The notes below the pieces were generated by a model. That model was given only the letters and a program-made list of their open reading frames with translations, was not told the origin of the DNA and searched no databases. The position numbers and the translations under genes are program-made. From Anaerolineae bacterium (GTDB lineage Bacteria; Chloroflexota; Anaerolineae; Fen-1058): DNA of 64,000 nt. Every line of letters begins with the position of its first letter. Position 1 is the stretch's first letter. The DNA lies in NCBI GenBank assembly GCA_036514635.1, contig DATBWU010000164.1:337-64336 (forward strand). Reading direction: 5' to 3'. Positions 6,801-64,000 of this stretch are shown here, piece by piece.

Positions 6801-6855
6801 AAGGCCTGCTTTTCCACACCGGCTTTGACATTTCATACGCTTGAGTCGTACTCCT

Positions 6856-36781: not shown

Positions 36782-36796
36782 GGTTATTCCATAAAA

Positions 36797-37930: not shown

Positions 37931-37958
37931 AGGCACACCCTTTAACAATGGCTATGAA

Positions 37959-38008
37959 GCGTGAAACGTAAAACATGAAACGTAATTACGTTTTACGCAT
38001 CACGTTTT
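37959..38008. repeat. CGTAAAACG-type palindrome in the prkA-yeaH spacer
   Basis: gcgtgaaacgtaaaacatgaaacgtaattacgttttacgcatcacgttttac. The right end overlaps the prkA stop. Confidence 0.7.
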
Positions 38009-40049
38009 ACTGCCTCGCCGTGTCGCCGCGCGCGAAAATGCTGGCGACGTAGTTCAGCACGTCGGTCGCGCACACGTCGCAGTAGCCCATGTTCTTGATC
38101 ATGCGACTCTTGACGACCTCGATCTTCTCCTGCGTCTCGCTGTCGATCACGTTGGAGACCAGGCTGGTGAGCTTGATCGAGTCTTTCTGATCTTCGAACA
38201 GCTTCAGCTCGAGCGCGCGGCGCAGGCGATCGTTGGAGTCCCACGCGAAGGTCTTGCCCTCCAGCGCCAGTGCGCCGATGTAATTCATGATCTCGCGCCG
38301 GAAATCGTCCTTCCGGCTCTCCGAGATTTCGATCTTCTCTTCGATCGAGCGCATCAGCCGCTCGTCGGGCGGCTCGTCCTGGCCGGTGTACGGATTGCGC
38401 ACCTTTTGCTTCTGCGTGTAGGCCTTGATGTTGTCGATGTAGTTGGCGGACAAACGCTTGATGGCCGCTTCGTCGGCGGTGATTGCGCGTTGGACTTCGT
38501 TCTTGATGATTTCGTCGTACTCGGCGCGCGCCACGGCCAGCAGTTCGCGGAAGCGCTTGCGCTGCTCTTCGCTGGTAATCAGCGAGTGGTGGCGCAGGCC
38601 GCCCTCCAGTTCGCGCATCAGCAAGAAGGGGTTGATGCAAGTGCGGCTCTGATCGCTGACGAGCGCATTGGATAACTTGTCCTGGATGTAGCGCGGCGAA
38701 ATGCCGATCATGCCTTCCTGCTTGGCCTCGGCCTGCAACTCCATCACGCTGTCCTCGGTGAAGCCAGGCAACGAGCGGCCGTCGTATAGCTTCAGCTTCT
38801 GGAGCAGTGTCAATCCGGCGTGCTTCGGTTCTTCGAGCCGGGTCAGCACGGCCCACAGCGCGGCGATCCCCAGCGTGTGCGGCGCGATGTGCTTGCCGAC
38901 CACGCGCCGCTCGTTGAAGTCGCGCTCGTAGATTCTCACTTCGTCGCTGTAACGAATGACGTAGGGGATGTCGATCTTGATCGTCCGATCGCGTAGCGCC
39001 TCCATATACTCGTTGCCGAGCAGACGGCGGTACTCGGCCTCGTTGGTGTGGCCGAGGATGACTTCGTCGATGTCGGTATGGGCGAATTTCTTAGGCTTGA
39101 TCTTGTGTTCCTGCGAAGCCGTGAGCAGGTCGTAGAGGAAGGCCACGTCGAGCTTGAGGATTTCGATGAACTCGACCAGTCCGCGATTGGCGATGTTCAA
39201 TTCGCCATCGAAGTTGAAGGCGCGCGGGTCGGAGTCCGAGCCGTACTCGGCGATCTTGCGGTAGTTGATGTCGCCGGTCAGCTCGGTCGAGTCCTGGTTC
39301 TTCTCATCCTTCGGCTGGAACGTGCCGATGCCGACGCGGTCTTTTTCGGACAGCAGCAGCCGCTTCACGCGCACCTGGCGCACCACGTCCAGCCAGTTGC
39401 CGCCGGCCTTTTCCAGCAGGCGGTTGAACACGAATCGACACGCCGGGCATAGATCGCCTTCGATCTCGATGTGTTGCACGCCGTCGTGGCCCGTGTTCAA
39501 TTCTGCCATGATCGTCGATCGGAACTCGTAGGGGATCAGGTGGAGCGGCTCTTCGTGCATCGGGCAGTCCATGCGTTCGCCGTCGTCGGGCTGCCAGTAG
39601 AACGTGTACACGCGGCCCGCATCGGTGCGCGTGTAGGCTTCCAGGCCTTTCTTGAGCAGGCGGACGATCGTGCTTTTGGCCGTGCCGACGGGGCCGTGCA
39701 GCAACAGCACGCGCCGCTCGGTTCCGTAGCGGCGAGCCGCCGATTGGAAGACGCGCACCAGTTCCATCAACGGCTTATCCAGCCCGAAGACGGCATCTTT
39801 GCCGCTCTCAAAGGGGTCGTCGAAGAAGCGATAGTGGATGAGCGCCTCGCGGTAGCGGGTGTATTCGTCGCTGCCATAGGAGACGATCATGTCGTACATT
39901 CGCTGGAAAGCCGTGCGCGCGACTCGGGGATCGTGGCGCACGATTTCGAGGTAATCCTCGAGGCTCCCCTCCCAGTGCAGGCCGCGGAACCCGGACGTAT
40001 CTTGCATCCGCTCGATCTTATTCAGCAGGGTATCCGTCCCGCTCATCAC
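38007..40049 (-). CDS. prkA: PrkA family serine protein kinase (AAA-type)
   Basis: Walker [13 protein letters not shown], PrkA AAA and C-terminal domains, and a typical length (680 aa). Confidence 0.95.
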
Positions 40050-50335: not shown

Positions 50336-51949
50336 TTGAGGAGAAATCCTATGGACGAATCCATTCGCATCCTGATCGTTGAAGATGTGCGCACCGACGC
50401 CGAACTGGCCGAACGGGAAATCCACAAGACGCTCCAGGCGTGCGTCTTCCGGCGGGTGGAAACGCGCGAGGATTATCTGGCGGCGCTGGAGACGTTCCAA
50501 CCCGACCTCATCATCTCGGACTATCACCTGCCGCGTTTTGATGGCTTGACGGCGCTGAAACTGGCGCTGGAGCGCGCGCCACTCACGCCGGTCATCATCT
50601 GGACCGGCTCGATCAATGAAGACACCGCCGTCGAGTGCATGAAAGCGGGCGCGACGAACTACGTCATCAAGGAGCACATCAAGCGGCTGGGGCCGGCCGT
50701 GGTCCACGCGCTCGAGGAGCAACAACTGCGCCAGGAGCGCTTCTGGGCAGAGGAAGCCCTGCGCGAGAGCGAAGAGCGTTATCGCACGGTTTCTGAACTC
50801 ACCTCCGATTTTGCCTACGCGCTGCGTATCGAGCCTGACGGTTCGTTTACACCCGAATGGATGACGGAAGCCTTCAGCCGTATTACCGGCTACGACCTGG
50901 ATGCCAGCATGGATGGCCGCGCGGCCTGGATGAGCATCCTCCACCCCGGCGATGGGGCGGTTGCATTCCAACACCTGCAGGCCAACTTGTCCGGCAAGAC
51001 GCACGTCGCGGAGTACCGAATCGTCGACAAGAGTGGGCAGGTGCACTGGGTGCGCGACTATGGACGCCCGATATGGGATGCAACACAGAATCGCGTGACG
51101 CGAGTGATTGGAGCCGCGCAAGACATCACCGAGCGCAGGCAGGCCGAAGAAGCGGTGCGCCAGCTCAACGCCGAACTGGAGCAGCGTGTGCGCGAGCGCA
51201 CCGCCCAGCTCGAAGCCGCGAACCAGGAGCTTGAAACAGCCAACGCACGGCTGGAAGCCCTCGGCCGCGTCAAGGATGAGTTTGTCTCAAACGTCTCGCA
51301 CGAGCTGCGCACCCCCCTGGCGAACTTCAAGCTGTATCTGGGCTTATTGGCCCTCCGTCCTGAAAAGTACGACACCTACGTCGCTACGCTCGAACGCGAA
51401 ACAACGCGATTGACGAACCTGGTCGAAGGATTGCTCGTTCTATCGCGCCTGGACCAGAATCGCCAGACCCTGAACCTCACGTCGCTTGATCTGAATGCGC
51501 TGATTAGGGAGTACGTAACCGACCGGTCGTCGCTCGCCGAAAGCAAAGGTCTGACTTTGGTGTTCAATCCAGAGACGGCATTGCCTGCCGTGCAAGCCGA
51601 TCCGAATCTCCTGGGCCAGGCGTTAAGTATCTTGCTGACCAACGCGTTCAACTACACGCCGGCCGGTGGCCGGGTGACTGTGAGCGCGCAGGCCCGCCAC
51701 TTCGACGGCCGACAATGGCTCGGATTCAGTCTCAGCGATACCGGTCCCGGCATCGCGCCGGAAGAGCAAGCCGAACTCTTCACGCGGTTCTTTCGAGGGA
51801 AAGCGGGGCGCGAGTCAGGCGTGCCGGGCACCGGCCTGGGGCTGGCGATTGTCAAGGAGATCGTCGAGCGACATCATGGCCGGGTCGCAGTCGAGAGCGA
51901 AGGCGTACCGGGAAAGGGCGCGACCTTCAGCATCTGGCTGCCTGCTTGA
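50336..51949 (+). CDS. receiver-PAS-histidine kinase hybrid
   Basis: N-terminal receiver (LIVEDV, LIISDYHLP, VIKE), a PAS domain, H-box NVSHELRTPL, and HATPase motifs (DTGPGI, GTGLGLA). Confidence 0.9.
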   Translation: MRRNPMDESIRILIVEDVRTDAELAEREIHKTLQACVFRRVETREDYLAALETFQPDLIISDYHLPRFDGLTALKLALERAPLTPVIIWTGSINEDTAVECMKAGATNYVIKEHIKRLGPAVVHALEEQQLRQERFWAEEALRESEERYRTVSELTSDFAYALRIEPDGSFTPEWMTEAFSRITGYDLDASMDGRAAWMSILHPGDGAVAFQHLQANLSGKTHVAEYRIVDKSGQVHWVRDYGRPIWDATQNRVTRVIGAAQDITERRQAEEAVRQLNAELEQRVRERTAQLEAANQELETANARLEALGRVKDEFVSNVSHELRTPLANFKLYLGLLALRPEKYDTYVATLERETTRLTNLVEGLLVLSRLDQNRQTLNLTSLDLNALIREYVTDRSSLAESKGLTLVFNPETALPAVQADPNLLGQALSILLTNAFNYTPAGGRVTVSAQARHFDGRQWLGFSLSDTGPGIAPEEQAELFTRFFRGKAGRESGVPGTGLGLAIVKEIVERHHGRVAVESEGVPGKGATFSIWLPA

Positions 51950-52350
51950 GCACTCCCGCAGCGGCTCAGTCTGTGACCTTCGCCGAACAACAGGCTTGAC
52001 CGTCGATAACGGCGAATCGCGGCAGCGCTACACGTTCGACCTGTCACCCCAAGCCGGAGTGCCGATTTTAGTCGGCGTGGTTAAACAGGTTGACCCCACT
52101 CTCCGCTTGCCCATGTCGGCCACTGTGCGGCGGCGGGCTGCCAGGCGCGCTACGGGGGCAAGTGAGCCTGCACTCCGATGCTTACCGCTTGCGAGGACGC
52201 GCTTGGTGAGCGATAAACCCTCTTCGATCGATATACTAATTCTAACAAAATTGATTAACTAAAGTGTCAAATTCCATGATATTATCTGCAACAGACTGAC
52301 ATCAAGGATATTTGAACCACGGGAGGCTATCTAAGAGCTAGTCGATAAGA

Positions 52351-52378
52351 TTGACAGGCTTTGCTTCGAACTTAGAAA
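52351..52378 (+). promoter_or_regulatory. weak sigma70-like promoter candidate at the island edge
   Basis: TTGACA (52351-52356)-N16-TAGAAA (52373-52378) in the most AT-rich stretch of the window, about 40 nt upstream of the small ORF at 52420. Confidence 0.25.
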
Positions 52379-52419
52379 TCTGCTATGCCCGAGTAGTTAC
52401 CCTTTCGCAAGGAGCGACA

Positions 52420-52527
52420 TGTGCGCGACTTGCGGAAATGAAATACCAGCCGAGTTCCGCTCTCAACGTTCCTCGGCTGGTAGTGGTGAAGATAAGCGCA
52501 TCATGTGCGCTCGTCTTCGTTATTAAT
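52420..52527 (+). CDS. candidate 35-aa Cys-containing small ORF (MCATCGNEIPAEFRSQRSSAGSGEDKRIMCARLRY)
   Basis: ATG preceded by AAGGAG (4-nt spacer). CxxC at the N-terminus. Below the ORF-track length cut-off. It could equally be the stump of a zinc-ribbon gene. Confidence 0.2.
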
Positions 52528-52892
52528 TATACCAGAAATCTTCGCCATAATGCAATGGCTCAAAAGTTAAGAAATCGTTTCCGGCTTAGGGCCCAATCGC
52601 TGCCAATCATGTATCTCCTGCCCGACCAGAATGATCCTTGCGATGTTCGCCGTCTTCGCCCTGTGGGCGCTGCTGGCAAGCCTCGGGCTGTTGTTCCCCG
52701 ACTCGCCCTCTGGCACTCAAGCGGAGGGGATGCGAGTTGACTCGAGCGCACCGCCGGTATTGCGTCTGCGTCGCTGCCGGCGCTTGCGCGCAGGTCTACC
52801 TCCATAGGGTATGGGTACACGCGCGACAACTACCGTGATGATCCCGCCTACGACGACTATCCGGTCATGAGCGTAGTGAAGGTAGTTGGTCT

Positions 52893-53103
52893 AGGTCACA
52901 TGTCCTGATCATCAATGCCCGTCCGGATGCTGAGACGTAGGGGCTGGCGGGACGATCCTCAGGCATGTAACGAGAGGCGACGCCGTGCACGTCTTGATCC
53001 TGACCGACGGCGTGATGGCGCGCCATAGCCAAGTGGACCGGCAGAAAGCGGCTGCATGGCAGGTGTGCCTGGCTCTGGCATTAGCTTCGGAACGGCCGAC
53101 ACG
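52893..53103 (+). pseudogene. fragment of a PIG-L/LmbE-family deacetylase gene
   Basis: VLIINARPDAET* resembles the hhhhxAHPDDxE motif with an in-frame stop. After a frameshift, RGDAVHVLILTDGVMARHSQVDRQKAAAW resembles the G-x-V-x-V-h-h-LT-x-G segment. Only about 70 of the expected ~230 aa remain. Confidence 0.35.
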
Positions 53104-54597
53104 ATGATAGTGGCTAAGGATAGCGTTACAAAAGGGCAGTCAACTTGTGGTCTCGTCTACCAGCTCTGCCAGATCTTGAAGGCAGAAGGTGTCGTCTATT
53201 GCCATTGGAAGAGCAATGTCGCACTCGATCGTTCAGCCAGAGGCGACGCCGATCTCGATCTCCTGGTCAGTCGCGCTAGTGTGAGGCAGTTCACGGACAT
53301 TCTGTATCGGTTGGGTTTTAAGGAAGCGCGGGCGTTGTCGAGACAAAAGATGCCAGGTGTTCTGGATTACTACGGGTACGATGAGGCGGTCGATCAGCTC
53401 ATTCACGTTCACGCCCATTATCAGCTCATACTGGGCGACGACATGACGAAGAATTACCGACTTCCTATCGAGAGGCCGTTCCTTGAATCGGCGGCTCAAG
53501 GCGACTTGTTCAAGATCCCTGCACCTGAATTCGAACTTATCGTGTTCGTGATTCGGATGGTGCTGAAACATTCAACCTGGGATGCTATTCTGAGCGGACA
53601 GGGAGCCTTGCCCACTGCGGCGCGGCGAGAGCTGGAGTACTTGCGAGCACAGGTTAACCCAGGCCGCATGTACGACATCTTGCGGGAACACTTGCCCTGT
53701 ATCGATGCGTCACTGTTCGATCGCTGCCTGCAGTCGTTACAACCGGATTGTCTGCTTTGGACTCGCGTCAAGACGGGACAGCAGCTTCAGGGCGCGTTAA
53801 AGGCTCATGCGCGCCGATCATACGTTTCCGATGTTGGTTTGAAGTTCGGGCGTCGGGTTACTGGGCTGATTCGACATCGAATTTTGGGGCGGCGGAGTAA
53901 AAGACGTCTGGCGAGCGGCGGCGCGATCATCGCCCTCGTCGGGGGAGATGGCGCTGGCAAGTCAACGGCCGTCAAGAATGTCTACGCCTGGCTTTCAACC
54001 TTCGACACGATCAAAGTGCATATGGGTAAACCGCCCCAGTCATTAGCGACTTTCGCTGTTAGAGGAATATCGAAGGTCACCAGCTGGCTTGGCATATTGC
54101 TGAAGCGGAATTGGTCTGTTCAAGCTGGAGCGGAGGCCGGGTCCTCTGCATTCTTCAAATACCTTTGGTTATTGCGACGTGTTCTGATAGCCCGTGACCG
54201 TTATCGGACTTACGCCAGGGCGCGCCGTTTCGCGACAAATGGCGGACTGGTGGTCTGCGATCGGTATCCCGTCCCTGAAGTCAAATTGATGGATGGGCCG
54301 CAATCTGACCGCGTAAACAAGACCGGTCAGACGAATCGACTTGTCGAGTCTTTGATCCAGTCGGAAAAGAGATACTATCAGCAAATGATGCCCCCCGACC
54401 TGCTGATCGTGTTGCGAATCGACCCCGAGATTGCTGTTCAACGCCGGGCGGATGAGGAAGCAGCCTTTATTCGAGCGCGTTGCCGGGAGATATGGGAGAT
54501 AGGCTGGGGGCATACGCGCGCCCACGTTATTGATGCCAGCCGATCAATAGCAGATGTGCTGTCTGATATGAAGTCTCTGGTATGGACACATCTCTAA
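53104..54597 (+). CDS. two-domain protein A: N-terminal NTase-like domain fused to a C-terminal P-loop (dTMP-kinase-like) domain
   Basis: N-terminal: VVYCHWKSN...GDADLDLLVSRASVRQFTDILYRLGFKE...HVHAHYQL. C-terminal: Walker A ALVGGDGAGKST, then LVVCDRYP and a lid-like RRADEE. The start at 53104 is chosen because it aligns with paralog A' (32 vs 31 residues before CHWKSN). Confidence 0.7.
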   Translation: MIVAKDSVTKGQSTCGLVYQLCQILKAEGVVYCHWKSNVALDRSARGDADLDLLVSRASVRQFTDILYRLGFKEARALSRQKMPGVLDYYGYDEAVDQLIHVHAHYQLILGDDMTKNYRLPIERPFLESAAQGDLFKIPAPEFELIVFVIRMVLKHSTWDAILSGQGALPTAARRELEYLRAQVNPGRMYDILREHLPCIDASLFDRCLQSLQPDCLLWTRVKTGQQLQGALKAHARRSYVSDVGLKFGRRVTGLIRHRILGRRSKRRLASGGAIIALVGGDGAGKSTAVKNVYAWLSTFDTIKVHMGKPPQSLATFAVRGISKVTSWLGILLKRNWSVQAGAEAGSSAFFKYLWLLRRVLIARDRYRTYARARRFATNGGLVVCDRYPVPEVKLMDGPQSDRVNKTGQTNRLVESLIQSEKRYYQQMMPPDLLIVLRIDPEIAVQRRADEEAAFIRARCREIWEIGWGHTRAHVIDASRSIADVLSDMKSLVWTHL

Positions 54598-55313
54598 CGC
54601 AAGTTTCAGCTGAAAACGCGTTTGCGGAGAGATTACCGCTCATCGCGGAAGTCGTCGGCCCGGCGGGCGCAGGCAAGACCACGCTTGTGCTGGCCCTGAG
54701 CCAACGCAATGAAAGAATCCGGACGGTGTTTAGCCTCCGCAGAGTAAGGTACATTCCGTCCTTCGTCGGTCACGCTTTTTCGCTGCTGCCAACGTTTCTT
54801 CGCCAGTCCCGAAATGGCAGCGGGTTTACCTGGCAAGAGATAAGGCTGATGACACATCTCGAGGCGATGCAGCATGCTTTTGGGCGAACGGCGCCGAATT
54901 ATCGCGGGGTGACGATTCTGGATCAAGGGCCAGTCTATATGCTGGCTCGGCTGCATAGTTTTGGTTTCGGGAACGTGAGGGGCCGGAGCCTTGCGCAATG
55001 GTGGAGTGATCTACTCGACCGATGGGCGGCTAATTTGGATATGCTCATTTGGCTTGATGCATCGGACATGACCCTGGTGGACCGTATTCACGCACGCGGC
55101 AAGTGGCACTCTGTAAAGGAGAAACCTGAGCAAGAGGCACTTCAATTCCTGGCGGGTTTCCGCGCATCTTGTGAGCAGATCATCGCTCGATTGACGGCTC
55201 ACGGCGGCCCGAGGGTGCTTTATTTCAATACCGATCGGGAAGCGCCGGATCAGATTGTGGCTGAGATTCTGGCTGAATTTGATTCAAAAAGAGTATGGGG
55301 TAGGCGAGCGTAG
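54582..55313 (+). CDS. small P-loop NTPase/kinase-like protein B
   Basis: Walker A VVGPAGAGKTT, Walker-B-like TILDQGPV, and IWLDASDMTLVDRIHARG (nucleotide-kinase-like). Overlaps the end of A by 16 nt. Confidence 0.65.
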   Translation: MDTSLTQVSAENAFAERLPLIAEVVGPAGAGKTTLVLALSQRNERIRTVFSLRRVRYIPSFVGHAFSLLPTFLRQSRNGSGFTWQEIRLMTHLEAMQHAFGRTAPNYRGVTILDQGPVYMLARLHSFGFGNVRGRSLAQWWSDLLDRWAANLDMLIWLDASDMTLVDRIHARGKWHSVKEKPEQEALQFLAGFRASCEQIIARLTAHGGPRVLYFNTDREAPDQIVAEILAEFDSKRVWGRRA

Positions 55314-55380
55314 CGTGCGACGAAGCAATTCCTCGCTGACCGCCGCAGAGATTGCTTCGCAAAAAGCGCTCGCCATGACG
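55314..55380. repeat. palindromic repeat (gcgacgaagcaatt ... agattgcttcgc ... cgctcgccatgacg)
   Basis: Inverted cgaagcaat/attgcttcg core, related to the element at 13835-13907. Confidence 0.55.
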
Positions 55381-55402
55381 AATCTAACATAGTCGAACGA
55401 TT

Positions 55403-56974
55403 ATGCTCAAGACATTGCCCAACATCAAAACTTTATCCAGGTATCTCTCCGGCGAGAGTCTGACCCAGAAAGCTTCTCTAAACGCGCTGGCCGCAGCCCT
55501 GGACTATGGGGCGCGATTAGTGACGGGCTTTCTGCTGAACCCTTTGCTGCTGGCCGGATTGGGCAATTATCTGTATGGCGCGTGGCAGGTGCTGGTGCGC
55601 TTGATCGGGTACATCTCAGCCGCAAGTGGCCGCCCGACTCAGACTCTCAAATGGACCATCGCGAATCAGCAGGCCTCGACCAATTACGAAGAGAAGCGCC
55701 GAAATGTCGGCAGCGCCATCGTTGTCTGGTTTCGGTTCCTGCCGATCCTTGCGGCAATTGGAGGATTACTCGCTTGGTTTGCACCTGACTGGCTCAATGC
55801 ACCGGCGGAATTCGTCTGGTTCGTGCGCTTGGCCGCGGGGGTGCTTGTAGTAGACCTGATTGTGACCAATTTGGTTGATGTGCCGGAGTCGGTGCTACGG
55901 GGTGAAAACCTGGGATACAAGCGCATGGGCCTTACCACACTCCTGGTGTTCGTGCAAGGGGGAGTGATTGCTGCGGCTGTGTACTTTAAGACGGGCATTA
56001 TCGGCGTGGCCGTGGCTGTGCTTCTGGATACCGTATTGACCGGTGTGTTATTTCTGTACATCGTCCGTTCCTACGTCCCCTGGTTCGGCATTGCCAGGCC
56101 CTCAGCTGCAGCGGTGCACCGTTTTTTTGGGCTAAGCTGGTGGTTTCTGATCTGGCGACTGATCATGCAACTGATGATGGCCAGCGACGTGGTCGTGCTG
56201 GGTATGCTCGACTCGGTTGAGAAAGTGACAACCTATACACTCACAAAGTATGTCCCGGAAGCGCTGATCAGTTTGGTGGCCATTGTGGTGAGCGGGGTCA
56301 CGCCTGGGCTGGGCGGCATGATCGGGGCCGGAAAGTTGGCAAAGGCAGCGCATATACGAAGCGAGATTATGGCGGCAACGTGGCTTATCGCGACTGCTGC
56401 GGGAACGACGATGCTGTTGTGGAGTCGTGCGTTTGTTCAGCTGTGGGTGGGGGCAGAGTACCATGCGGGGTCCATATCCACCTTGTTCATCATGTTGATG
56501 ATGATGCAGTTCGTTCTCATTCGGAACGATGCCACGTTCATCGATCTGACGCTTAACTTGCGCCGCAAAGTGCTCATAGGCATAGTATCGGCGGCTATAT
56601 CTCTCGTCTTGGCTGGAGTCTTGGTGGGGCACTTCAATCTGGGCATCATCGGTCTGTGCTTGGGGCTCATGGCGGGTCGTTCCATTCTCAGCCTGGGCTA
56701 CCCCTGGCTCATTGGACGGTTGCTTGGAGTTTCGTTCGCTTCTCAGCTCAAGAGCGGGCTCAGGCCCGCATTCGTCACGGCTGTTTTCTTCGCATTCACG
56801 CTAGGCGTAAGCGACCTGTTGGCCGCGGACAATTGGATTGACCTTATTCTCTCGGCCGGGGTGACGGTGGTCTTGGCGTCGCTACTGGCATTCTACGCCG
56901 GCTTAACGGGTGATCAGCGCAAGCGTGTGTTGCATCGAGTACAAGCAGTCACGCGGCCCGCTGCGACAGATTGA
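55403..56974 (+). CDS. MOP/PST-family oligosaccharide flippase (Wzx-like)
   Basis: 523 aa, about 12-14 predicted TM helices, and a typical N-terminal SLTQKASLNALAAALDYGARLVTGFLLNPLL. Confidence 0.75.
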   Translation: MLKTLPNIKTLSRYLSGESLTQKASLNALAAALDYGARLVTGFLLNPLLLAGLGNYLYGAWQVLVRLIGYISAASGRPTQTLKWTIANQQASTNYEEKRRNVGSAIVVWFRFLPILAAIGGLLAWFAPDWLNAPAEFVWFVRLAAGVLVVDLIVTNLVDVPESVLRGENLGYKRMGLTTLLVFVQGGVIAAAVYFKTGIIGVAVAVLLDTVLTGVLFLYIVRSYVPWFGIARPSAAAVHRFFGLSWWFLIWRLIMQLMMASDVVVLGMLDSVEKVTTYTLTKYVPEALISLVAIVVSGVTPGLGGMIGAGKLAKAAHIRSEIMAATWLIATAAGTTMLLWSRAFVQLWVGAEYHAGSISTLFIMLMMMQFVLIRNDATFIDLTLNLRRKVLIGIVSAAISLVLAGVLVGHFNLGIIGLCLGLMAGRSILSLGYPWLIGRLLGVSFASQLKSGLRPAFVTAVFFAFTLGVSDLLAADNWIDLILSAGVTVVLASLLAFYAGLTGDQRKRVLHRVQAVTRPAATD

Positions 56975-56986
56975 GGCACACCCACA

Positions 56987-58294
56987 ATGCAGACTTACTT
57001 CAATCCTTCATCTTCAAGCGTCGGCTCGCGCCATCCCGCCCTCGATCCGGTGAATGTGCTGTTTCTGATTGGCGCATTCTTAGCCCCTTGGGATTTGAGC
57101 TTAGGCGGGAGCGGCTTCACGGCCTACGATGTTGTGCTGGTGGTTGTGGCGTTCATGATGCTCGCTACTCGTCGACGATGGCAGTTCTTATCCTTCCAAT
57201 TCACAGCGGCAGTCTATGTGTTTATCCTGTTCGCCGTGTTAAGTACATTTCGTGCGCCTCAGCCAGTCGAATCATTGACCCAGATTGTGCAGTTCATCTT
57301 CATTTTCTTTGTCCAGATTCCGATCATTTTCACTTTAGTCAAATCTCAATGGCTGTTCCGCATGAGCCTGCTCATGTTTGTGAGCGGGATGTTGGTAGGA
57401 GTGATCTCGTCTCTTGCTGTTGAACGTTTTCAGGGCGCAGGGCGTACGCTCGCATTTTACAGCGAAAATCCTAATCGGCTCGGCTATACGACCGCGTACT
57501 TTCTTCCGTTTGTGCTGCATCTATTGTTCGAGGCCTGGCGCACGAGGCGCACGCTAGCCGTTATTCTGGCATCGGGCGCGCTCCTGCTCATGATCTGGGC
57601 GCTGCTTGCCTCCGGTTCGCGCAGTGCGACAGTAGGGACGCTGGTCACGGCCGTGGTCTTTCTAACCTTTTATCGTGGGTTCGAGATCAATCTGAAAACC
57701 ATGCTTCGATTGCTCTTGGTTGTGGCGGTAATCGGATTGGTGAGTTACTGGTTCTATCAGTCTGATTTCTTTCCGGCCACGCTGCGCCACCGCATCGAAC
57801 GCACGCTGATGCAGGAGGCCAGCCTGACTCGGGATCGAACGAGCCTGGCTGAAGCGGGTTGGCTCGCCTTTCTGGATTCGCCTTTCATCGGCGTGGGGTT
57901 CGATAACTTTCGATACGTGGCCGGCCAATACGTGTTTATGACCCATCAACTCCCACACAACATGTGGCTCCAGTTCCTGGCGCAAATCGGCCTTGTTGGA
58001 ACCTTGGCGTTTTTTGCCCTGCTCGTGCGCTGGTTCGTGCCGATGTTCCGGGCGCAAGGCGCGATCGAAGATCGTTCGCAGCGCGAGCTGATGTGGGCGT
58101 TTATCGCCTCTATGATCGGGATCATTACGATCTACATGTTTGTGCCGTTGATGATCCAGCGACAATACTGGTTGATCTACGGACTGGGGCTGGTGCTGGC
58201 GAACGGCTTGCGCGAAGGGCAAGCACGGAGCATGCCAGAGTCGCATCAGCTTCCGGGGATTCTTTCCCGGCAGGGCACGGCCTTGAGCGCCTGA
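56987..58294 (+). CDS. O-antigen ligase/polymerase family membrane protein (Wzy-like)
   Basis: Polytopic. Wzy_C-like loop SGSRSATVG and FIGVGFDNFRY...HNMWLQFLAQIG. Confidence 0.75.
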   Translation: MQTYFNPSSSSVGSRHPALDPVNVLFLIGAFLAPWDLSLGGSGFTAYDVVLVVVAFMMLATRRRWQFLSFQFTAAVYVFILFAVLSTFRAPQPVESLTQIVQFIFIFFVQIPIIFTLVKSQWLFRMSLLMFVSGMLVGVISSLAVERFQGAGRTLAFYSENPNRLGYTTAYFLPFVLHLLFEAWRTRRTLAVILASGALLLMIWALLASGSRSATVGTLVTAVVFLTFYRGFEINLKTMLRLLLVVAVIGLVSYWFYQSDFFPATLRHRIERTLMQEASLTRDRTSLAEAGWLAFLDSPFIGVGFDNFRYVAGQYVFMTHQLPHNMWLQFLAQIGLVGTLAFFALLVRWFVPMFRAQGAIEDRSQRELMWAFIASMIGIITIYMFVPLMIQRQYWLIYGLGLVLANGLREGQARSMPESHQLPGILSRQGTALSA

Positions 58295-58339
58295 ACTATC
58301 CTCCCAACTCGCCGGGGCCTGCAACGGAAAAGGGATTCG

Positions 58340-59467
58340 ATGCAAGAAGGAAATTCGCCGAGTATGTCCAATAAGCCGAAGGAGCGCCTGGCTGTGTTGC
58401 AAATCCTGCTCTCGATAACCGAGACCAGTGGTGCATACAATCAGCATTGTCTTGCAATGCCTGATAAGCGTGACATTACGATATGCACCTACTTCAGACC
58501 GAGCATGGCCGTCCCCAAAGAACTCACCTTGCTTGCGGGCGATAACTCGCTTATCGGCTTCTTGCGTACCCTGAAAGCGGCCCTGGCCGAGAAAAAATTC
58601 GACATCATCCATGCTCACTCGCCGCATGTGGGGTTTTTGTTCGTGGTGTTCGACCTGCCGAGGCTGCGGAAATTCAAGCGCAGCACAGTCTATAACGTGC
58701 AAAACTCATATCAGAACTACAAACTGAGAAACAAGTTGCTGATGATTCCGGTCTTCGCTTATTTTCAACGAGTGGTTTGTTGCAGCCAGGCCTGTCTTGA
58801 GAGCTTTCCGCGCTTCTACAAATGGTTGGCCGGTGACAGGCTTTGCGTCATTCCCAATGGGCTGGATGTGGATCGGGTCGATCGGATCATGGCCTATTCA
58901 CCGCGGCTTCATCAGAATGGTACCTTTATCGTGGCCTCGGTAGGACGGCTGATCGAGATCAAGAATCCTTTTGCCATCTTAAGCGCATTTCAGCAAAGCG
59001 ATGATCAACTCAGCCGCTTGATGTTTATCGGCGAAGGACATTTGCGCGACTCGCTCGCGACGGAAATCGAAGCCCGTGGCCTGTGCGAACGGGTCGAGCT
59101 GACGGGGTTGATACCAAGAGACAAGGTCTTCGAGAACTTGAGTAAAGCGGATGTCGTCGTTTCTGCTTCTCGGGGGGAAGGGCTGCCGGTGGCTGTGATC
59201 GAGGCGATGGCCTGCCGCTGCCCGGTGATTCTGTCTGATATAGAACCCCATCGAGAGATTGCGGCCGGCGCCGACTTTATTCCTCTCATTCATCCCGATG
59301 ACGTCTCCGGATTTGCTCGAGGCATCGAGAGGTTTAGACAGATGTCAGCCTCGGAGAGAGCAGAGATCGGCGAGAAATGCAGAAGACTCGCCGAGGAGCG
59401 CTATGGCCTGACGGCGATGCACAGGGGATACCAAGAAGTCTATACCCAAGTGCTTGGCAAACATTGA
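58340..59467 (+). CDS. GT4-family (GT-B) glycosyltransferase
   Basis: E-x7-E region SASRGEGLPVAVIEAMACRCPVILSDI. N-terminal Rossmann half with HAHSPH. The start may be the internal ATG at 58364. Confidence 0.85.
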   Translation: MQEGNSPSMSNKPKERLAVLQILLSITETSGAYNQHCLAMPDKRDITICTYFRPSMAVPKELTLLAGDNSLIGFLRTLKAALAEKKFDIIHAHSPHVGFLFVVFDLPRLRKFKRSTVYNVQNSYQNYKLRNKLLMIPVFAYFQRVVCCSQACLESFPRFYKWLAGDRLCVIPNGLDVDRVDRIMAYSPRLHQNGTFIVASVGRLIEIKNPFAILSAFQQSDDQLSRLMFIGEGHLRDSLATEIEARGLCERVELTGLIPRDKVFENLSKADVVVSASRGEGLPVAVIEAMACRCPVILSDIEPHREIAAGADFIPLIHPDDVSGFARGIERFRQMSASERAEIGEKCRRLAEERYGLTAMHRGYQEVYTQVLGKH

Positions 59468-59483
59468 CACGGGGAGCCTTCAC

Positions 59484-60293
59484 GTGCACGCCATGCAGAT
59501 CGAGTTAATCGGTTGTACCGGTGCGGGCAAATCGACTTTGGCTGAGGGCATGTTGCTGGCCTCCCGCCGGCAGGGAATTGACATGCTCATGGGCGACACC
59601 TTTGTGCTGAAGCAACACCGGCTGGATTGGATTTCGAGCAAACCGGCGCGGACGCTGCTGATCGATCTCTTTTCGCTGTGGACCTGTCTGGTCACCTGGC
59701 GGCGAAATTCTGAGTTTTACACTTTTGCACTCCGGATCATTTTTCGGCTGCCAGTGGGCTGGCTTGAAAAGCTTAATCTGGCCAGGAATGTTCTGAAGAA
59801 AATTGGAATCTATGAAATCATTCGGCGCCACGGCCGTGACCGGCAAATCATACTGGTCGATGAGGGAACATTGCATGCGGCCCACAATCTGTTTGTCCAT
59901 GTGTCCGTTCGGCCGAATGCCGACGACCTGGCAACCTTCGTCAGATTGGTGCCCCGGCCAGAGTGGGCTATCTACGTGATGCACAGCGAGTCGGTCTTAA
60001 TCGAGAGGACTCTCCAGCGCGGGCATAAGCGCATCCCCGATCGCTCGTATGCCAATGTAGAGCTTTTCGTCAAGCGGGCGGTGGAGATATTCGATGGACT
60101 GCGCCGGCAACCGGAGCTCGAAGGAAGATTACTGGCGATAGATCGTCAGCAGGATCTGATCGTCAGTTCTCATGATCCCGGCGATCCATTCTTGGCAGAC
60201 ATCTTGAGCATCATTCGGGCCGGTATGGAGACTGACCTGGTGAACAACGCGGCCCGGCCCGGCCTGCGACAAGACGCGGCGGTGTCCGTATGA
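59484..60293 (+). CDS. small P-loop NTPase/kinase-like protein B'
   Basis: Walker A LIGCTGAGKST, Walker-B-like ILVDEGTLH, and IYVMHSESVLIERTLQRGHKR. The GTG at 59484 follows GGGGAG by 7 nt. The ATG at 59493 is an alternative start. Confidence 0.65.
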   Translation: MHAMQIELIGCTGAGKSTLAEGMLLASRRQGIDMLMGDTFVLKQHRLDWISSKPARTLLIDLFSLWTCLVTWRRNSEFYTFALRIIFRLPVGWLEKLNLARNVLKKIGIYEIIRRHGRDRQIILVDEGTLHAAHNLFVHVSVRPNADDLATFVRLVPRPEWAIYVMHSESVLIERTLQRGHKRIPDRSYANVELFVKRAVEIFDGLRRQPELEGRLLAIDRQQDLIVSSHDPGDPFLADILSIIRAGMETDLVNNAARPGLRQDAAVSV

Positions 60294-61804
60294 TTTCGGA
60301 ACTGAAGCGGCGAAGCGCCGACATGACAATGGCACTGATCGATTGTCTGGTCGATACGCTTCAGCGCGAAGCGATTACCTTTTGCCACTGGAAAAGCAAC
60401 TTCCATTTGAAAGAGGCTCTGGCGAAAGGCGGGGACCTGGATTTGCTCGTGGCGCGTAAGGATGCCGAGCGGTTCGAGGGTGTCCTGGCCGCTCTGGGCT
60501 TCAAACGCGCTGTCGATTCAGTGCAGGGCTCCATTCCTTCCGTTCTGCACTTCTATGGTCTGGATCACGGGAGCGGTGAATGGGTCCATCTGCATGTGTA
60601 TTATCGAGTCGTGACCGGCGAAAGCCTATTGAAGAACTATCACTTTCCTGTCGAAGAACTGTTGCTACAGAATCCTGGGCAGGTAGGGGGCATGCCTGTA
60701 CCACACCAGCCTTCAGAATTGATGCTGTTTGTGATACGCACCATGCTCAAGCATGCCTCATTCCTCGAGTACCTGCTCCTCCGGCGCCTCGACGGGGCCG
60801 GTTATACGGCGGTACGGGGGGAATTAGAGTCTCTGCTGGCAGATGATTCCGCGGCCAGGTGTTCGGAGTTGCTTGCCCAGTGGCTGCCGTCTGTGGAGCG
60901 CGATCTTTTCCACGAATGCATTCATGCCCTCCAAACGGATGCCTCCTTCCTGCGTCGTTTTTGGTTGGCGACGAGACTGCGCAGACAGCTCAAGACATAC
61001 AACCGGTATTCGTTCGTGTCGGCGACGTTGTTACGGGCGACGCTCTTTCTCAAGCTAACCCTCCGGCGCTTGCAGGGCGGTAAGAAACCTAAGCAGCCGG
61101 CGTCGGGCGGTGCACTGATTGCATTTGTAGGCCCCGAAGCGACAGGCAAATCGACTTTGGTGAAGGAAACGGCGGACTGGCTGGGGCAGGTTTTCGATGT
61201 CCGTTCGGCTCATTTGGGAAAGCCGCCATCGACTTGGTTAACTTTCCTGCCCAATCTCACTGTGCCGCTCGTGCGCAGATTGGCTCCGCGGCATCGAACG
61301 AGCCGGGTGGAGAATGACTTAGACGACCGAAAGACTCGCAGCGTCTCTCTGCTATATGGTCTTCGTTCAGTCCTGGTTGCCTGGGATCGGCGCGCGCTGG
61401 CCATGAAATTGCGTCGGACGGCAACCCATGGCGGCATCGTCATCTGCGACCGTTATCCCTCTGCGACGATTGGCGCTATGGACAGTGCCCGATTGCAGGT
61501 TCCGGCAGACCGGAGCGTGCGTGGCCGATTGCTCGGCTCCTGGGCCAGGCTGGAGAACCGGCTGTATCGACAAATACCGCCGCCGGATGTCGTGATTCGA
61601 GTGACGGTTCCGGTCGATGTTGCCATTGAACGTAACCGGGAGCGGCAAAAGAATGGCAAAGAGAACGATGCGTACGTGCTGCGCAGGCACATGACCAGCC
61701 TGGTTCCCGAGTTTCTGACAGCCAGAACTTTCGATCTGGACTCGAATCAACCCATAGCGCAGACCGTCAGTTCTGTGCGCCAAATCGTGTGGGACGTTCT
61801 ATAA
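60290..61804 (+). CDS. two-domain protein A' (paralog of A): NTase-like N-terminal domain plus P-loop dTMP-kinase-like C-terminal domain
   Basis: ITFCHWKSN...GGDLDLLVARKDAERFEGVLAALGFKR...HLHVYYRV. Walker A AFVGPEATGKST. IVICDRYP. Collinear with A throughout. ATGA overlap with B'. Confidence 0.7.
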   Translation: MISELKRRSADMTMALIDCLVDTLQREAITFCHWKSNFHLKEALAKGGDLDLLVARKDAERFEGVLAALGFKRAVDSVQGSIPSVLHFYGLDHGSGEWVHLHVYYRVVTGESLLKNYHFPVEELLLQNPGQVGGMPVPHQPSELMLFVIRTMLKHASFLEYLLLRRLDGAGYTAVRGELESLLADDSAARCSELLAQWLPSVERDLFHECIHALQTDASFLRRFWLATRLRRQLKTYNRYSFVSATLLRATLFLKLTLRRLQGGKKPKQPASGGALIAFVGPEATGKSTLVKETADWLGQVFDVRSAHLGKPPSTWLTFLPNLTVPLVRRLAPRHRTSRVENDLDDRKTRSVSLLYGLRSVLVAWDRRALAMKLRRTATHGGIVICDRYPSATIGAMDSARLQVPADRSVRGRLLGSWARLENRLYRQIPPPDVVIRVTVPVDVAIERNRERQKNGKENDAYVLRRHMTSLVPEFLTARTFDLDSNQPIAQTVSSVRQIVWDVL

Positions 61805-61820: not shown

Positions 61821-64000
61821 ATGCCCGCTAAACGGGGAAAGCAGCTGTTAAGCCATTCGCTGGTGATCATAGGAATCGTTGCGCTCTTCGCATCAGCGCT
61901 GCGTTCAGTCAGCTCAGCGCAAGAACGGCCCGATGACCTGCACTCGACTGTACATCAGCAGGTGTTCCTTCCCTTAATCATTGCCAGTTCTGAGCAAGCG
62001 CAGTCCGATTACTACAGGCACGTTCGCACGATCGAGACCGACCGCATGGGCATTCCCCGTCCCGCGGGCGTGGCCTACTCTCCCGCGACCGATACCTTCC
62101 TCATTGTGCAGACCCGCGACCCGGAGCAGTCTCAGCCAGGAACAACTAACCTCTTCATGCTCACGCAGTTGGAAGAACTGGCTGGCTCAGTCAGCATCGC
62201 TGCGACGATTCCTGACTCGCTAAACATCACGTATAACGGCAAGGCCAATCGTTTGCTGCTCTTGAATGCCGCGACCAACGAGCTACTTGAGATCGAGACG
62301 GGGCCGACACGCGCGCTCGATCCCGCAACACTCACGCGGTTCGATGTCCGTCAGTTTGGCCTCCAAACCCCCCGAGGCATGACGCTTGATCCACAGAGCG
62401 GCCGCTTGTTCATCCTGGATAGTGCGGCGCACCAGATTGTGTGGGTGGACCCCGGCCCTGACCAGAGCTATGACGGCGCGGCGGCGCTACGCGATGGCCG
62501 CATCGGGCAGGTAGACCTGAAACCATTAGGGCTGGTCGATCTCCGGGGTCTGGCTTTCAACCCGATGAATGGTCACCTGTATGTGCTAAGCGCGGCCAAA
62601 GAATCGCTGTACGAACTCACTCAGACAGGCCAGCTGGTGGCGACGCGTGATCTGTCCAACTCCTCTGACTTTAGGCTGATTGACCCTCAAGGCATGGTCT
62701 TTGGCCCTAGCTTCGACCAGACTGATGACCCCAGCGTGATGAATCTGTATATCGTCGATCGCCGGCTGGGCGACCGGTGGCAACGGCAAGGCCAAATTGA
62801 GGAGTTGTCTCTCATCCAACCGGTCCGACCCAATCTCATCGGCGTAACCGCGGTTCAGGCGTCCCTCGTGCGGACGACCAACCTGAATACATGGTCGCCG
62901 CCCAGCCCCGACCCGATGGGCGCGGGTTACGACCCCGCCACGAATCGACTCGTGATCAGTGACTCTGAAGTCGAGGAAATGCCTCCGTACTGGGTGGGCG
63001 TCAACCTCTTTGTAGCGAATCTGGCAGGCGGTCTGATCGAGACCCACACGACCTCCCCATCCTACTCGGACGAGCCGACCGGGGTCGCTTTTAACCCGGT
63101 CAACGGGCACTGCTTTATTTCCGACGATGACAAGAAAGATGTCTTTGAACTGACCCCTGGGGCGGATGGCCAGTGCTTCACCTCAGATGACGTCAGGACG
63201 CAGTTTGACACAACCGCTGTCGGTATCGGAGATCCGGAAGGTCTTGCCTTTAACACCTGGAACGGGCACCTGCTTTTTGCAGGCGGGGAATTTGGAGAAT
63301 TTCACGACATCAATCCAGGCCCCAATGGCCGCTTCGACGGCGGGGGAGATGATATCGTGACCCAGTGGGACACCGCCAGCCTGGGTCTTCCGGATCCCGA
63401 AGGCATCGAATTCAACCCCGACACCGGTACGGTGTACCTCGCCGGTAGCGGCGGATTCATCTTGGAGACGACGACCGGTGGTGCCGTACTGAATGTGATT
63501 GACATTTCCTTTTTGAGCCCAGACTCCCCGTCGGGCCTGGCGTACGGTCCAAGCAGTGTGAACCCTGCGGAGAAATCTCTCTACATCGTTGATCGTGCGG
63601 TTGACAATAACTCTAACCCTAATGAAAACGACGGCAAATTGTACGAAATCTCGCTCGGCCCGACGGGTCCCACACCTACACCGAGCAACACACCCACACC
63701 GAGCAATACGCCGACGCCCGGCCCTACTCTCACGCCGAGCAACACGCCGACGTCGAGCAATACGCCGGGACCGACCAACACGCCGACCCCGACCGCCGCA
63801 CCCGGATCTACCCTGACCTTTGGTGCTGTCGCCGATGCACGCGTGAATGAGTCCAGCCCTAGCACGAATTATGGAACGGCCGCGGTGATCTATGTTGAGG
63901 GCGGTACCGATCCCGATTACGAAGGCTATTTCCGCTTCACGGTGACCGGCGTGGCAGGCGCGGTCCAGAATGCCAGGCTGCGGGTGTTCGCCAGTAATGG
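61821..64000 (+). CDS. secreted repeat (beta-propeller-like) protein with PT-rich linker and DNRLRE-like C-terminal domain, truncated by the window edge
   Basis: ATG at 61821 preceded by AAGGAGAG. Signal peptide LVIIGIVALFASALRSVSSA. About 9 repeats of the type P-x-G-h-a-h-x-P-x-x-G-x-L-h-h (PRGMTLDPQSGRLFILD, PEGLAFNTWNGHLLF...). PTPTPSNTPTPSNTPTPGPT linker. Then ADARVNESSPSTNYG...FRFTV. It has no stop in the window, so it is absent from the ORF track. Confidence 0.7.
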   Translation, partial: MPAKRGKQLLSHSLVIIGIVALFASALRSVSSAQERPDDLHSTVHQQVFLPLIIASSEQAQSDYYRHVRTIETDRMGIPRPAGVAYSPATDTFLIVQTRDPEQSQPGTTNLFMLTQLEELAGSVSIAATIPDSLNITYNGKANRLLLLNAATNELLEIETGPTRALDPATLTRFDVRQFGLQTPRGMTLDPQSGRLFILDSAAHQIVWVDPGPDQSYDGAAALRDGRIGQVDLKPLGLVDLRGLAFNPMNGHLYVLSAAKESLYELTQTGQLVATRDLSNSSDFRLIDPQGMVFGPSFDQTDDPSVMNLYIVDRRLGDRWQRQGQIEELSLIQPVRPNLIGVTAVQASLVRTTNLNTWSPPSPDPMGAGYDPATNRLVISDSEVEEMPPYWVGVNLFVANLAGGLIETHTTSPSYSDEPTGVAFNPVNGHCFISDDDKKDVFELTPGADGQCFTSDDVRTQFDTTAVGIGDPEGLAFNTWNGHLLFAGGEFGEFHDINPGPNGRFDGGGDDIVTQWDTASLGLPDPEGIEFNPDTGTVYLAGSGGFILETTTGGAVLNVIDISFLSPDSPSGLAYGPSSVNPAEKSLYIVDRAVDNNSNPNENDGKLYEISLGPTGPTPTPSNTPTPSNTPTPGPTLTPSNTPTSSNTPGPTNTPTPTAAPGSTLTFGAVADARVNESSPSTNYGTAAVIYVEGGTDPDYEGYFRFTVTGVAGAVQNARLRVFASN

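Follow-up and report, generated by a model that had tools for sequence, protein, structure and literature searches.

A kinase-nucleotidyltransferase module in a Wzx/Wzy-type glycan operon of an Anaerolineae bacterium

What would a surface-glycan operon with a single glycosyltransferase do with four kinase-like P-loop domains? The question is raised by a 64,000-nucleotide stretch of contig DATBWU010000164.1 (hereafter the window), which comes from a metagenome-assembled genome (MAG) of an Anaerolineae bacterium. Seven open reading frames (ORFs) follow each other there on the plus strand, all starting with ATG, in the order A-B-wzx-wzy-GT4-B'-A'; an earlier note, made from the sequence alone, had given this order and these positions, and our reading of the ORFs bears both out. 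Genes wzx, wzy and GT4 encode a flippase-like protein, a polymerase-like protein and the one glycosyltransferase, while A and A' are predicted to join a nucleotidyltransferase (NTase) fold to a kinase fold and B and B' are smaller kinase-like proteins. Bacteria make their O-antigens, capsules and exopolysaccharides mainly by Wzx/Wzy-dependent assembly, a route whose core steps count as known. The frame of the pathway is thus familiar, whereas the A/B module is an undescribed family that may represent a new step within it. We tentatively propose that A/B and B'/A' modify the lipid-linked repeat unit beside the flippase by phosphoryl and nucleotidyl-type transfer.

Gene A (53104-54597; 497 amino acids [aa]) has a further in-frame ATG at 53056, which gives 513 aa and is the start used by NCBI, where the product is the hypothetical protein HEY4689446.1. 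It overlaps B (54582-55313; 243 aa) by 16 nt, and the stop codon of B' (59493-60293; 266 aa) and the start codon of A' (60290-61804; 504 aa) share the letters ATGA; both overlaps are as the note had described them. Between the pairs lie the genes for a Wzx-like flippase of the MOP family (55403-56974; 523 aa), a Wzy-type repeat-unit polymerase or O-antigen-ligase-family membrane protein (56987-58294; 435 aa) and a GT4-family glycosyltransferase (58340-59467; 375 aa); junctions between the operon genes range from -16 to +89 nt. The bracket A-B...B'-A' stands as an order but not as a closed seven-gene unit, because the operon runs on into an eighth gene that starts 16 nt after A' and continues beyond the end of the window (61821-64000, plus strand). 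These eight co-directional genes are read as one operon, which would serve a Wzx/Wzy-dependent surface glycan.

Domain structure of the paired proteins

A and A' align from end to end (33% identity, E=2e-81 by BLASTP). Both carry the series CHWKSN...GD(A/L)DLDLLV...LGFK...H(V/L)H followed by a Walker A motif and (V/I)CDRYP, so that their description as collinear paralogs with these motifs holds good, and in A' the motifs are intact (GGDLDLLV, GPEATGKST and ICDRYP). A' sits in a separate, ancient clade; for its orthologs L089_491 and L088_499 the scores are 717 and 396 bits against A' but 242 and 230 bits against A.

An AlphaFold (AF2) model of A (predicted local distance difference test [pLDDT] 87.7; predicted TM-score [pTM] 0.83) divides the protein into a predicted NTase domain of the Pol-beta fold at residues ~15-260 and a P-loop domain of the thymidylate kinase (TMK) fold at residues ~265-497. 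The C-terminal half resembles thymidylate kinases of known structure (Foldseek E=4e-8, probability 1.0, TM-score 0.69; 4dwj, 2plr and 4tmk). Because these matches filled the Foldseek list of full-length A, the N-terminal domain was modelled separately (pLDDT 89.8). Its list of top PDB matches consists almost entirely of Pol-beta NTases, among them ANT(2''), LnuA, poly(A) polymerases, OAS and CCA-adding enzymes; these are weak matches, with probabilities up to 1.0 but TM-scores of ~0.5 and none at E<=1e-3. The best compact matches are ANT(2'')-Ia (5kqj, 4wqk, 5cfs and 4xje; probability 0.96-1.0) and LnuA (4fo1; 0.99). These antibiotic O-nucleotidylyltransferases are minimal Pol-beta NTases that act on a hydroxyl of a sugar-like small molecule. 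The N-terminal domain of A differs from them in its low identity (11-15%, with Foldseek E of only 4e-3 to 4e-2), in an extra helical region of ~150 residues, and in a context other than antibiotic resistance.

The profile searches give a similar picture. PF14907 matches A with 20.2 bits and A' with 20.4 bits (E ~5e-4), below the gathering score of 31.2 and only over profile positions ~90-194 of 249, and PF02223 matches A with 29.9 bits, above its gathering score of 27, and A' with 23.5 bits. Among 38 members of the A family, 30 match PF14907 at E<=1e-3 (best 3.4e-7) and likewise 30 match PF02223; the highest PF14907 score among the fusion proteins described below is 29.4 bits (P0482). On profile evidence the predicted N-terminal domain is a divergent relative of PF14907, not a threshold-passing member. 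The C-terminal domain belongs to the TMK fold family but is not a dTMP-kinase equivalog, since A scores 29.4 bits against TIGR00041 versus a cut-off of 83.25. The assignment made in the earlier note, a PF14907-type NTase-like N-terminus and a TMK-type C-terminus, is therefore supported by profile and structure searches, with weak Pfam scores.

Residues D50, D52, G285-K286 of Walker A, D386-R387 and R447 are invariant in the 38 A-family sequences. D50-x-D52 forms the [DE]-x-[DE] metal-binding carboxylate pattern on strand 2 (E51-55), Walker A spans G280 to G285-K286, D386-R387 is followed by Tyr, and R447 is the lid arginine. With thymidylate kinase (PF02223; 4dwj, 2pbr, 2plr and 4tmk) and the nucleoside monophosphate (NMP) kinase/dNK fold, the C-terminal domain shares the fold, Walker A, D-R-[YF] and the lid arginine. 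It is unlike thymidylate kinase in its identity of 16-22%, in the region of the TMK NMP site (from the P-loop to D-R-Y), which is unrelated in sequence, and in its constant fusion to an NTase domain and linkage to wzx. The distance from the P-loop to DRY is ~100 residues in A and 82 in B; a large insertion after the Walker A helix, once considered for the kinase domains, was dropped, the spacing being near that of ordinary thymidylate kinases.

B carries the Walker A motif GPAGAGKTT, an invariant D114-x-G116-P117, W-L-D159-A and the lid R168-x3-R172-x3-H176, and B' carries GCTGAGKST, L-V-D-E-G-T and the lid R-x3-R-G-H-K-R. This set of motifs (Walker A, D-x-G-[PT], a hydrophobic strand with Asp at its end, and an Arg/His-rich lid) fits small-molecule P-loop kinases. 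Weak Pfam matches of B are to AAA_33, AAA_18 and dNK, and the families of B and B' comprise at least 372 and at least 419 proteins, respectively. By BLASTP the two have only Walker A in common, whereas their profiles align over 187 columns and agree in the order of the motifs (hhalign 92.7%, E=4e-7), and the B profile also aligns with that of the C-terminal domain of A (hhalign 91.6%, E=8e-7). B and B' are, by this comparison, predicted remote homologs of each other, and B also of the kinase domain of A. The earlier note had presented B and B' as a pair of P-loop kinase-like proteins, with B' starting at 59484: their kinase-like character stands, their kinship is only remote, and the start is not retained, the probable one being the ATG at 59493 (MQIELIG, as in homologs; 59454 and 59484 are alternatives). 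When A, B and B' were compared with the sequences of PDB chains, singly or in profile form, almost all matches lay in the P-loop (for instance, to RecA and ABC ATPases) and gave no help in assigning a function; weak matches in the lid region were to dNK 1j90 and adenylate kinase 4cvn for B and to the TMK tail for A and B'.

Gene fusions and conserved neighbourhoods

The link between these proteins and the flippase comes from operon structure and from natural gene fusions, the latter found among the longer representative A-family matches with domains assigned by hmmsearch and Pfam. In P0373, P0469, P0474, P0484, P0497 and P0498 a full A is followed by B (93-174 bits against the B profile), and in P0440 and P0482 a full A follows a Wzx-type flippase (Polysacc_synt_3, 257 and 249 bits). 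P0475 joins the tail of a flippase to A and B, and P0493 joins a Bac_transf tail to A, the latter a weak match of 22.8 bits that falls under the gathering score. As far as sequence can indicate, these fusions are the strongest evidence that A and B would act jointly at the flippase, on its cytoplasmic side.

The A family is large. A search of the A profile against 1.84 billion representative proteins (E<=1e-30) gave ~1,577 clusters at 50% identity, nearly all of which span both A domains, from at least eight phyla. The genomes that hold such loci belong to Chloroflexota, Acidobacteriota, Actinomycetota, Cyanobacteria, Planctomycetota, Gemmatimonadota and Proteobacteria, and named carriers are Calothrix sp. 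NIES-2100, Methylobacter marinus A45 and a Nitrosomonas MAG. In Calothrix the locus lies at ~4.99-5.01 Mb of AP018178.1, and in Methylobacter at ~2.718-2.731 Mb of NZ_KB912877.1. Automatic JGI annotation names many members 'thymidylate kinase', 'shikimate kinase' and similar. The earlier note had pictured a peculiar local island of lower G+C. The lower G+C is real (see below), but given the number of clusters the local peculiarity is not: the window operon is a reduced version of a cassette with a wide distribution, which is recognised by the triad A-B-Wzx and in many cases has a second, paralogous pair B'-A'.

Neighbours were counted in those 69 genome loci whose sequence extends 3 kb or more downstream of A. 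Of these, 52 contain B, which directly follows A in 36; the wzx subfamily of the window is present in 45 and directly follows A in 16. GT4 genes occur in 52 of the 69 loci, sulfotransferases in 24, a second A-type gene in 16 and genes for the supply of 3'-phosphoadenosine-5'-phosphosulfate (PAPS) in 6. Further co-directional neighbours are Wzy_C (33 further loci), a secreted Metallophos+fn3 phosphoesterase (16 loci), tyrosine kinases of the polysaccharide co-polymerase (PCP) type with Wzz/GNVR/AAA_31 domains (15 loci), epimerases (15 loci) and a Bac_transf primer (11 loci; L031 and L088 carry Bac_transf). A scan of metagenomes seeded with wzx, a small sample of five close loci only, found B adjacent in five of five and A upstream in three of the three where the DNA allowed it, in line with the triad.

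Both the pairing of A with B and of B' with A' and their mirror order, as first noted in the window, proved real and are conserved in relatives. The layout A-B...B'-A' recurs in at least four independent loci (L011, L019, L088 and L089), all of which keep the B'->A' pair. The near relative L089 reads NusG-like gene, A, B, wzx, GT4 and wzy in its 5' part, and deacetylase, GT4, B', A' and three SdiA-regulated/NHL/CBM96 proteins in its 3' part. Mirror order is common but not obligatory, because L014 (Calothrix sp. NIES-2100, AP018178.1; 8477-12200) has a tandem A'-A-B, with two exoprotein homologs upstream. In Methylobacter marinus A45 a Bac_transf gene stands directly upstream of A-B, and next come genes for nucleotide-sugar epimerases and then wzx, wzy, GT4 and B'; in L072 a PCP-tyrosine kinase gene lies directly upstream of A.

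The three genes between the pairs conform to their description as a wzx-wzy-GT4 core with one glycosyltransferase. The Wzx-like protein, with at least nine hydrophobic spans, is weakly Pfam-positive (19.8 bits; Polysacc_synt/Polysacc_synt_3) and is identified through its homologs, which are on record as PF01943/PF13440 and of which the one in L006 gives 578 bits. Its subfamily is strongly conserved, at 400-700 bits across phyla; set against the variable glycosyltransferases and sulfotransferases of these loci, such conservation fits a feature of the cargo that is itself conserved, or else a protein partner that is. The Wzy-type protein matches PF04932 (Wzy_C) with 70 bits (E=2e-19) and has eight hydrophobic spans, and the GT4 protein, the sole glycosyltransferase of the operon, matches Glycos_transf_1 with 89.5 bits and Glyco_transf_4 with 48 bits. 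GT4 orthologs (380-473 bits) occupy the same position before B' in L008, L011, L016, L019 and L031.

The eighth gene encodes a hydrophobic N-terminus (residues 6-33), an SdiA-regulated/NHL beta-propeller region (PF06977, 39 bits; NHL, 31 bits), a Pro/Thr-rich linker and the start of a CBM96 domain (33.9 bits), in that order; its product is a predicted secreted or anchored protein. Over 600 aa it is ~40% identical to large proteins of L050, L019, L035 and other loci, and its homologs occur in 21 of 86 loci, in L089 directly 3' of A'. At 63661-63803 an 18-nt periodic direct repeat in six overlapping copies encodes the Pro/Thr/Ser/Asn linker (PTPSNT...), likely an extended and possibly glycosylated spacer before CBM96.

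Several relatives hold further genes around the cassette. In L089, the gene directly upstream of A (1123-1692) encodes a NusG paralog (PF02357, 56 bits), which suggests a dedicated antiterminator of the LoaP/RfaH type for the long operon of that relative; the 5' gap of the window holds no ORF with a Pfam match, and no search aimed at a NusG paralog was made there. A secreted calcineurin-like Metallophos phosphoesterase with fibronectin-III domains, found in L073 (13751-15820) and 15 other loci (coordinates in L004, 2236-4020), would fit extracellular processing of a phosphate-linked decoration. Two families of ~310-325 aa that have no Pfam match flank a B'-type gene in L006 (17765-18691 and 19679-20653, both on the minus strand), and the 324-aa family (L6_324) recurs in 13 genome loci. 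Downstream of B'-A' in L088 (13596-19683) and L090 (17744-20825) stand Bac_transf, WbqC, PIG-L and a DegT aminotransferase, a set typical of the synthesis of amino-sugar repeat units (for example, N-acylated diamino sugars), which hints at the kind of sugar that is decorated.

Candidate functions of the A/B module

Published neighbourhoods offer precedents for the partnership. In the pseudomycoidin cluster the kinase PsmK phosphorylates a serine, after which PsmN, an 'uncharacterized nucleotidyltransferase' that requires its D-x-D and was modelled on the ANT(2'') structures 5cfs and 4xje, adds a hexose onto the phosphate (PMC6993621). The flanks of Ppm phosphonate neighbourhoods hold a thymidylate kinase and a PF14907 protein (PMC8942020). 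Together these cases make the pairing of a kinase with an NTase plausible for A/B. By analogy, PsmN of this lasso-peptide cluster is probably a functional example of a PF14907-type NTase: the N-terminal domains of A and A' match PF14907 and keep the D-x-D, and they share with PsmN the ANT(2'') neighbours 5cfs and 4xje and a kinase partner. The NTase domain of A is unlike PsmN in being fused to a P-loop kinase, where PsmN is partnered with an HPr-kinase-type enzyme, and in standing in a Wzx/Wzy glycan operon, where PsmN belongs to a cluster for peptides that the ribosome makes and that are modified after translation (RiPPs). LicD, fukutin and FKRP, which have a D-x-D motif, are NTase-fold phosphotransferases that add phospho-alcohols to glycans; their likeness to A is conceptual only, and Pfam scans gave no LicD family match at E<=0.1.

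In the mechanism that we favour, the lipid-linked repeat unit would be primed by a phosphoglycosyl transferase encoded elsewhere in the genome, a step suggested by the Bac_transf genes next to A in relatives, and would be extended by GT4. A and B would act in the cytoplasm as a complex that docks at the flippase: their association is shown by overlapping genes, by adjacency kept in relatives and by the A-B, Wzx-A and Wzx-A-B fusions, and physical contact is inferred. The chemistry that follows is drawn from the folds, from catalytic motifs that are conserved, and from PsmK/PsmN as a precedent. The P-loop domains (the C-terminal domain of A, and B) would transfer a phosphate from ATP to the lipid-linked glycan as the putative acceptor, and the NTase-fold domain would then add a nucleotidyl or other phosphate-linked group at the phosphorylated site; B'/A' would repeat the same chemistry at a second position. 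The conserved Wzx would flip the decorated unit and Wzy would polymerise it, and outside the cell the secreted propeller/CBM96 protein would bind or process the polymer. Phosphorylation or nucleotidylation of a lipid-linked glycan and control of export, the roles suggested in the earlier note, stay the leading candidates and are strengthened by the Wzx-A and A-B fusions. Because sulfotransferases and PAPS-synthesis genes add sulfate in many relatives, the common theme of the cassette is therefore a heavily anionic, variably decorated polysaccharide. A more specific idea, which we regard as rather unlikely, is that the A/B mark on the repeat unit is a 'ticket' required by the dedicated Wzx, and that the secreted phosphoesterase may later remove or remodel this mark.

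Several points weigh against modification of the repeat unit. The structural matches of the modelled N-terminal domain are weak by both Foldseek E (none at E<=1e-3) and TM-score (~0.5), the PF14907 scores of A and A' lie under the gathering threshold, and PsmN is only a putative member of PF14907. The window operon has no priming transferase, so that the presumed substrate depends on genes elsewhere. TMK-type enzymes normally phosphorylate a phosphate monoester (NMP to the diphosphate, NDP) and not a sugar hydroxyl, and the kinase step could accordingly be a different one, for example nucleotide recycling. Finally, phmmer (E<=0.01) does not link the flippases of P0440 and P0482 to the wzx of the window, so the fusion evidence concerns the MOP superfamily and not the exact subfamily found here.

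Other explanations start from the same genes. As soluble proteins, A/B and B'/A' could make an unusual nucleotide-activated donor that is then transferred by another enzyme: the kinase or kinases would phosphorylate a small molecule or sugar, and the NTase domain would convert it to an NMP- or NDP-linked donor, as a non-orthologous analogue of sugar-1-kinase plus pyrophosphorylase, LicA/LicC, or ATP-sulfurylase/adenosine-5'-phosphosulfate (APS)-kinase pairs. Joining a kinase to an NTase follows the classic logic by which donors are activated (HldE, FKP, LicA/LicC and PAPS synthase), which the fusion within A matches, and no transmembrane segment was found in A, B, B' or A'. The thymidylate kinase and PF14907 genes that flank phosphoenolpyruvate (PEP)-mutase neighbourhoods likewise suggest activation of a small-molecule phosph(on)ate (PMC8942020), and the authors of the PsmN study allow that PsmN may 'produce a substrate used by a host glycosyltransferase' (PMC6993621). 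We nevertheless consider this route improbable. The minimal operon offers no transferase for such a donor beyond one ordinary GT4; fusions to flippases (P0440, P0482 and P0475) and to a priming-transferase tail (P0493) are hard to explain by it; and known donor-forming NTases differ in fold (Rossmann-like), the nearest structures being enzymes that modify hydroxyls of finished molecules. Doubtful, too, is a function of A/B and B'/A' as nucleotide-binding regulators that gate flipping by Wzx or polymerisation by Wzy, for instance by sensing nucleotide pools or modifying the flippase, in analogy to the control of export by PCP/bacterial tyrosine (BY)-kinases. A Wzx fusion would suit a regulatory cytoplasmic domain as well as a cargo-modifying enzyme, the window holds four P-loops and no PCP, and the unusually conserved wzx subfamily (400-700 bits) is what one expects of a co-evolving protein partner. 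Wzc-type PCP-2a/BY-kinases are likewise P-loop proteins, are encoded in Wzx/Wzy loci and act on the cytoplasmic side. A, B, B' and A', by contrast, have no Wzz, GNVR or AAA_31/ParA-type Pfam domain, and since genuine PCP-tyrosine kinases co-occur with A/B in 15 loci, replacement of the PCP/BY-kinase was rejected as the main role. Against regulation stand also the invariance of the full catalytic motif sets of the NTase and the TMK-type kinase, the nearest structural relatives, which are small-molecule-modifying enzymes, and searches of PADLOC and NCBIfam, which yield no regulator family.

A part in sulfation, in which A/B would handle APS, PAPS or 3'-phosphoadenosine-5'-phosphate (PAP) or act as atypical P-loop sulfotransferases and the window would be a degenerate remnant, is much less probable than either, for all that several relatives invite it. 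Sulfotransferases and NMP kinases have a common fold, and sulfotransferases are present in 24 of the 69 loci; this frequent tie of relatives to sulfation genes was not anticipated in the earlier note. Relatives from Ardenticatenaceae/Anaerolineae couple A translationally to a fusion of pyruvate kinase (PK), PUA_2 and ATP-sulfurylase and place B between two sulfotransferases: L001 and L002 run from this fusion through A and ATP-sulfurylase-APS-kinase (ATPS-APSK) to sulfotransferases interleaved with B. L008 joins ATPS-APSK and a CysQ-like phosphatase to A, B, wzx and wzy, after which come a methyltransferase, GT4 and three sulfotransferases. The fusion itself (PF00224+PUA_2+ATP-sulfurylase, ~750 aa; L001 7749-10004, L004 7720-9984, also L011, L017 and L032) stands immediately upstream of A, which it overlaps by 4 nt in L001; a pyruvate-kinase domain joined to sulfate activation is not a standard architecture. 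Two thirds of the loci, however, including the window, have no sulfotransferase or PAPS gene within 10 kb, and the Walker A motifs of B, B' and the C-terminal domain of A are of the ATP type GxxGxGK[ST] and not the 5'-phosphosulfate-binding (5'-PSB) motif of sulfotransferases. Canonical ATPS/APSK enzymes accompany A/B in the sulfation loci, so that A/B are not needed to make PAPS. The described clusters for sulfated exopolysaccharide (EPS), synechan xss of Synechocystis and wps-1 of Actinoplanes, share Wzx, Wzy and GT4 with the window (PMC8205485; PMC13390465) and sulfotransferases, PAPS genes, PCP and priming transferase with its relatives; they differ in having no A-, B- or B'-type genes (for the characterised xss, see PMC8205485), and the window in having no sulfotransferase. 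A as an alternative PAPS synthase and B as a sulfotransferase were on these grounds (ATP-type Walker A, most loci without sulfation genes) rejected as a general role. We give next to no credence to chance placement, by which the 'thymidylate kinases' of the automatic JGI annotation (with names such as 'shikimate kinase') would be housekeeping enzymes of nucleotide salvage in a polysaccharide locus: the TIGR00041 score of 29 bits versus 83, the wzx adjacency and fusions kept across at least eight phyla and the four copies in one operon all speak against it. A defence system was considered and dropped, PADLOC giving only a P-loop-level match to mad8 (13.6 bits).

Surroundings of the operon and wider meaning

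The lower G+C of the region reported in the earlier note is confirmed: G+C is 55.5% over 53104-61804 versus 61.7% in the 52 kb upstream, and G+C at third codon positions (GC3) is 0.59-0.68 in the operon genes versus 0.71-0.86 in mutS/mutL/prkA. Marks of a mobile element were sought, and no tRNA and no flanking direct or inverted repeats were found around the operon. Upstream lie housekeeping genes (mutS, mutL and two-component sensors) and a 1.15-kb non-coding gap (51950-53103; G+C 56%), presumably the promoter or leader region. Rfam found nothing in this gap, tblastn with all neighbour ORFs of related loci as queries gave no match there, and ORFs 51849-52262 and 52351-52740 have no Pfam match. 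Promoter and terminator scans gave no signal either, promoter-like sites being no more frequent than in shuffled sequence. The decayed genes proposed for the 5' side were not borne out. As the note had observed, the window is without a priming transferase, a chain-length regulator (Wzz/PCP) and nucleotide-sugar genes, as judged from the ~40 larger ORFs scanned in its 64 kb; no sulfotransferase or PAPS-supply gene was found in the window either.

Elsewhere in the window, an LCP-family (LytR_cpsA_psr) glycopolymer ligase gene adjoins a Ser/Thr protein kinase gene (18904-21987, minus strand), and a ParA/AAA_31-type ATPase is encoded ~12 kb from the LCP gene (33243-34163, plus strand), next to an ORF that has no Pfam match (32285-33229). 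The ligase and the ATPase could be distant partners of the operon, in cell-wall attachment or in a BY-kinase-like role. A second patch of lower G+C (54%, 7-10 kb) holds a restriction-modification pair (6841-9750, plus strand), in which a 684-aa DNA methylase (N6_N4_Mtase) is followed by a NotI-like endonuclease, and a PrkA/DUF444/SpoVR trio, a conserved set associated with stress and sporulation, occupies 35306-40049 (minus strand).

No curated family in Pfam, NCBIfam or PADLOC names the A/B module, no solved structure in the PDB is close to it in sequence, and literature searches on PF14907, on combinations of TMK, NTase and flippase, and on sulfated EPS in Chloroflexi found no description of the cassette. 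The judgement that this is not a described pathway has thus held against all of these sources.

If A/B modify or gate lipid-linked cargo, they would add a new biochemical step and possibly a new type of glycan decoration, and a role of the orphan PF14907 fold outside RiPP clusters would be explained. In many relatives the module stands together with genes for PAPS synthesis and for several sulfotransferases, in phyla that are little studied for sulfated polysaccharides, and recent papers still present such polysaccharides of bacteria as essentially a cyanobacterial matter (PMC13390465). As a marker, the cassette could therefore also point to producers of anionic or sulfated EPS in soils, sludge and mats. 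The cultured carriers Methylobacter marinus A45 and Calothrix sp. NIES-2100 make the module directly testable. Should the mark prove to be a 'ticket' for the flippase, it would constitute a new enzymatic checkpoint in a textbook pathway, spread over at least eight phyla, and would give a first function to ~1,600 clusters that are at present 'hypothetical' or mis-named 'thymidylate kinase'.

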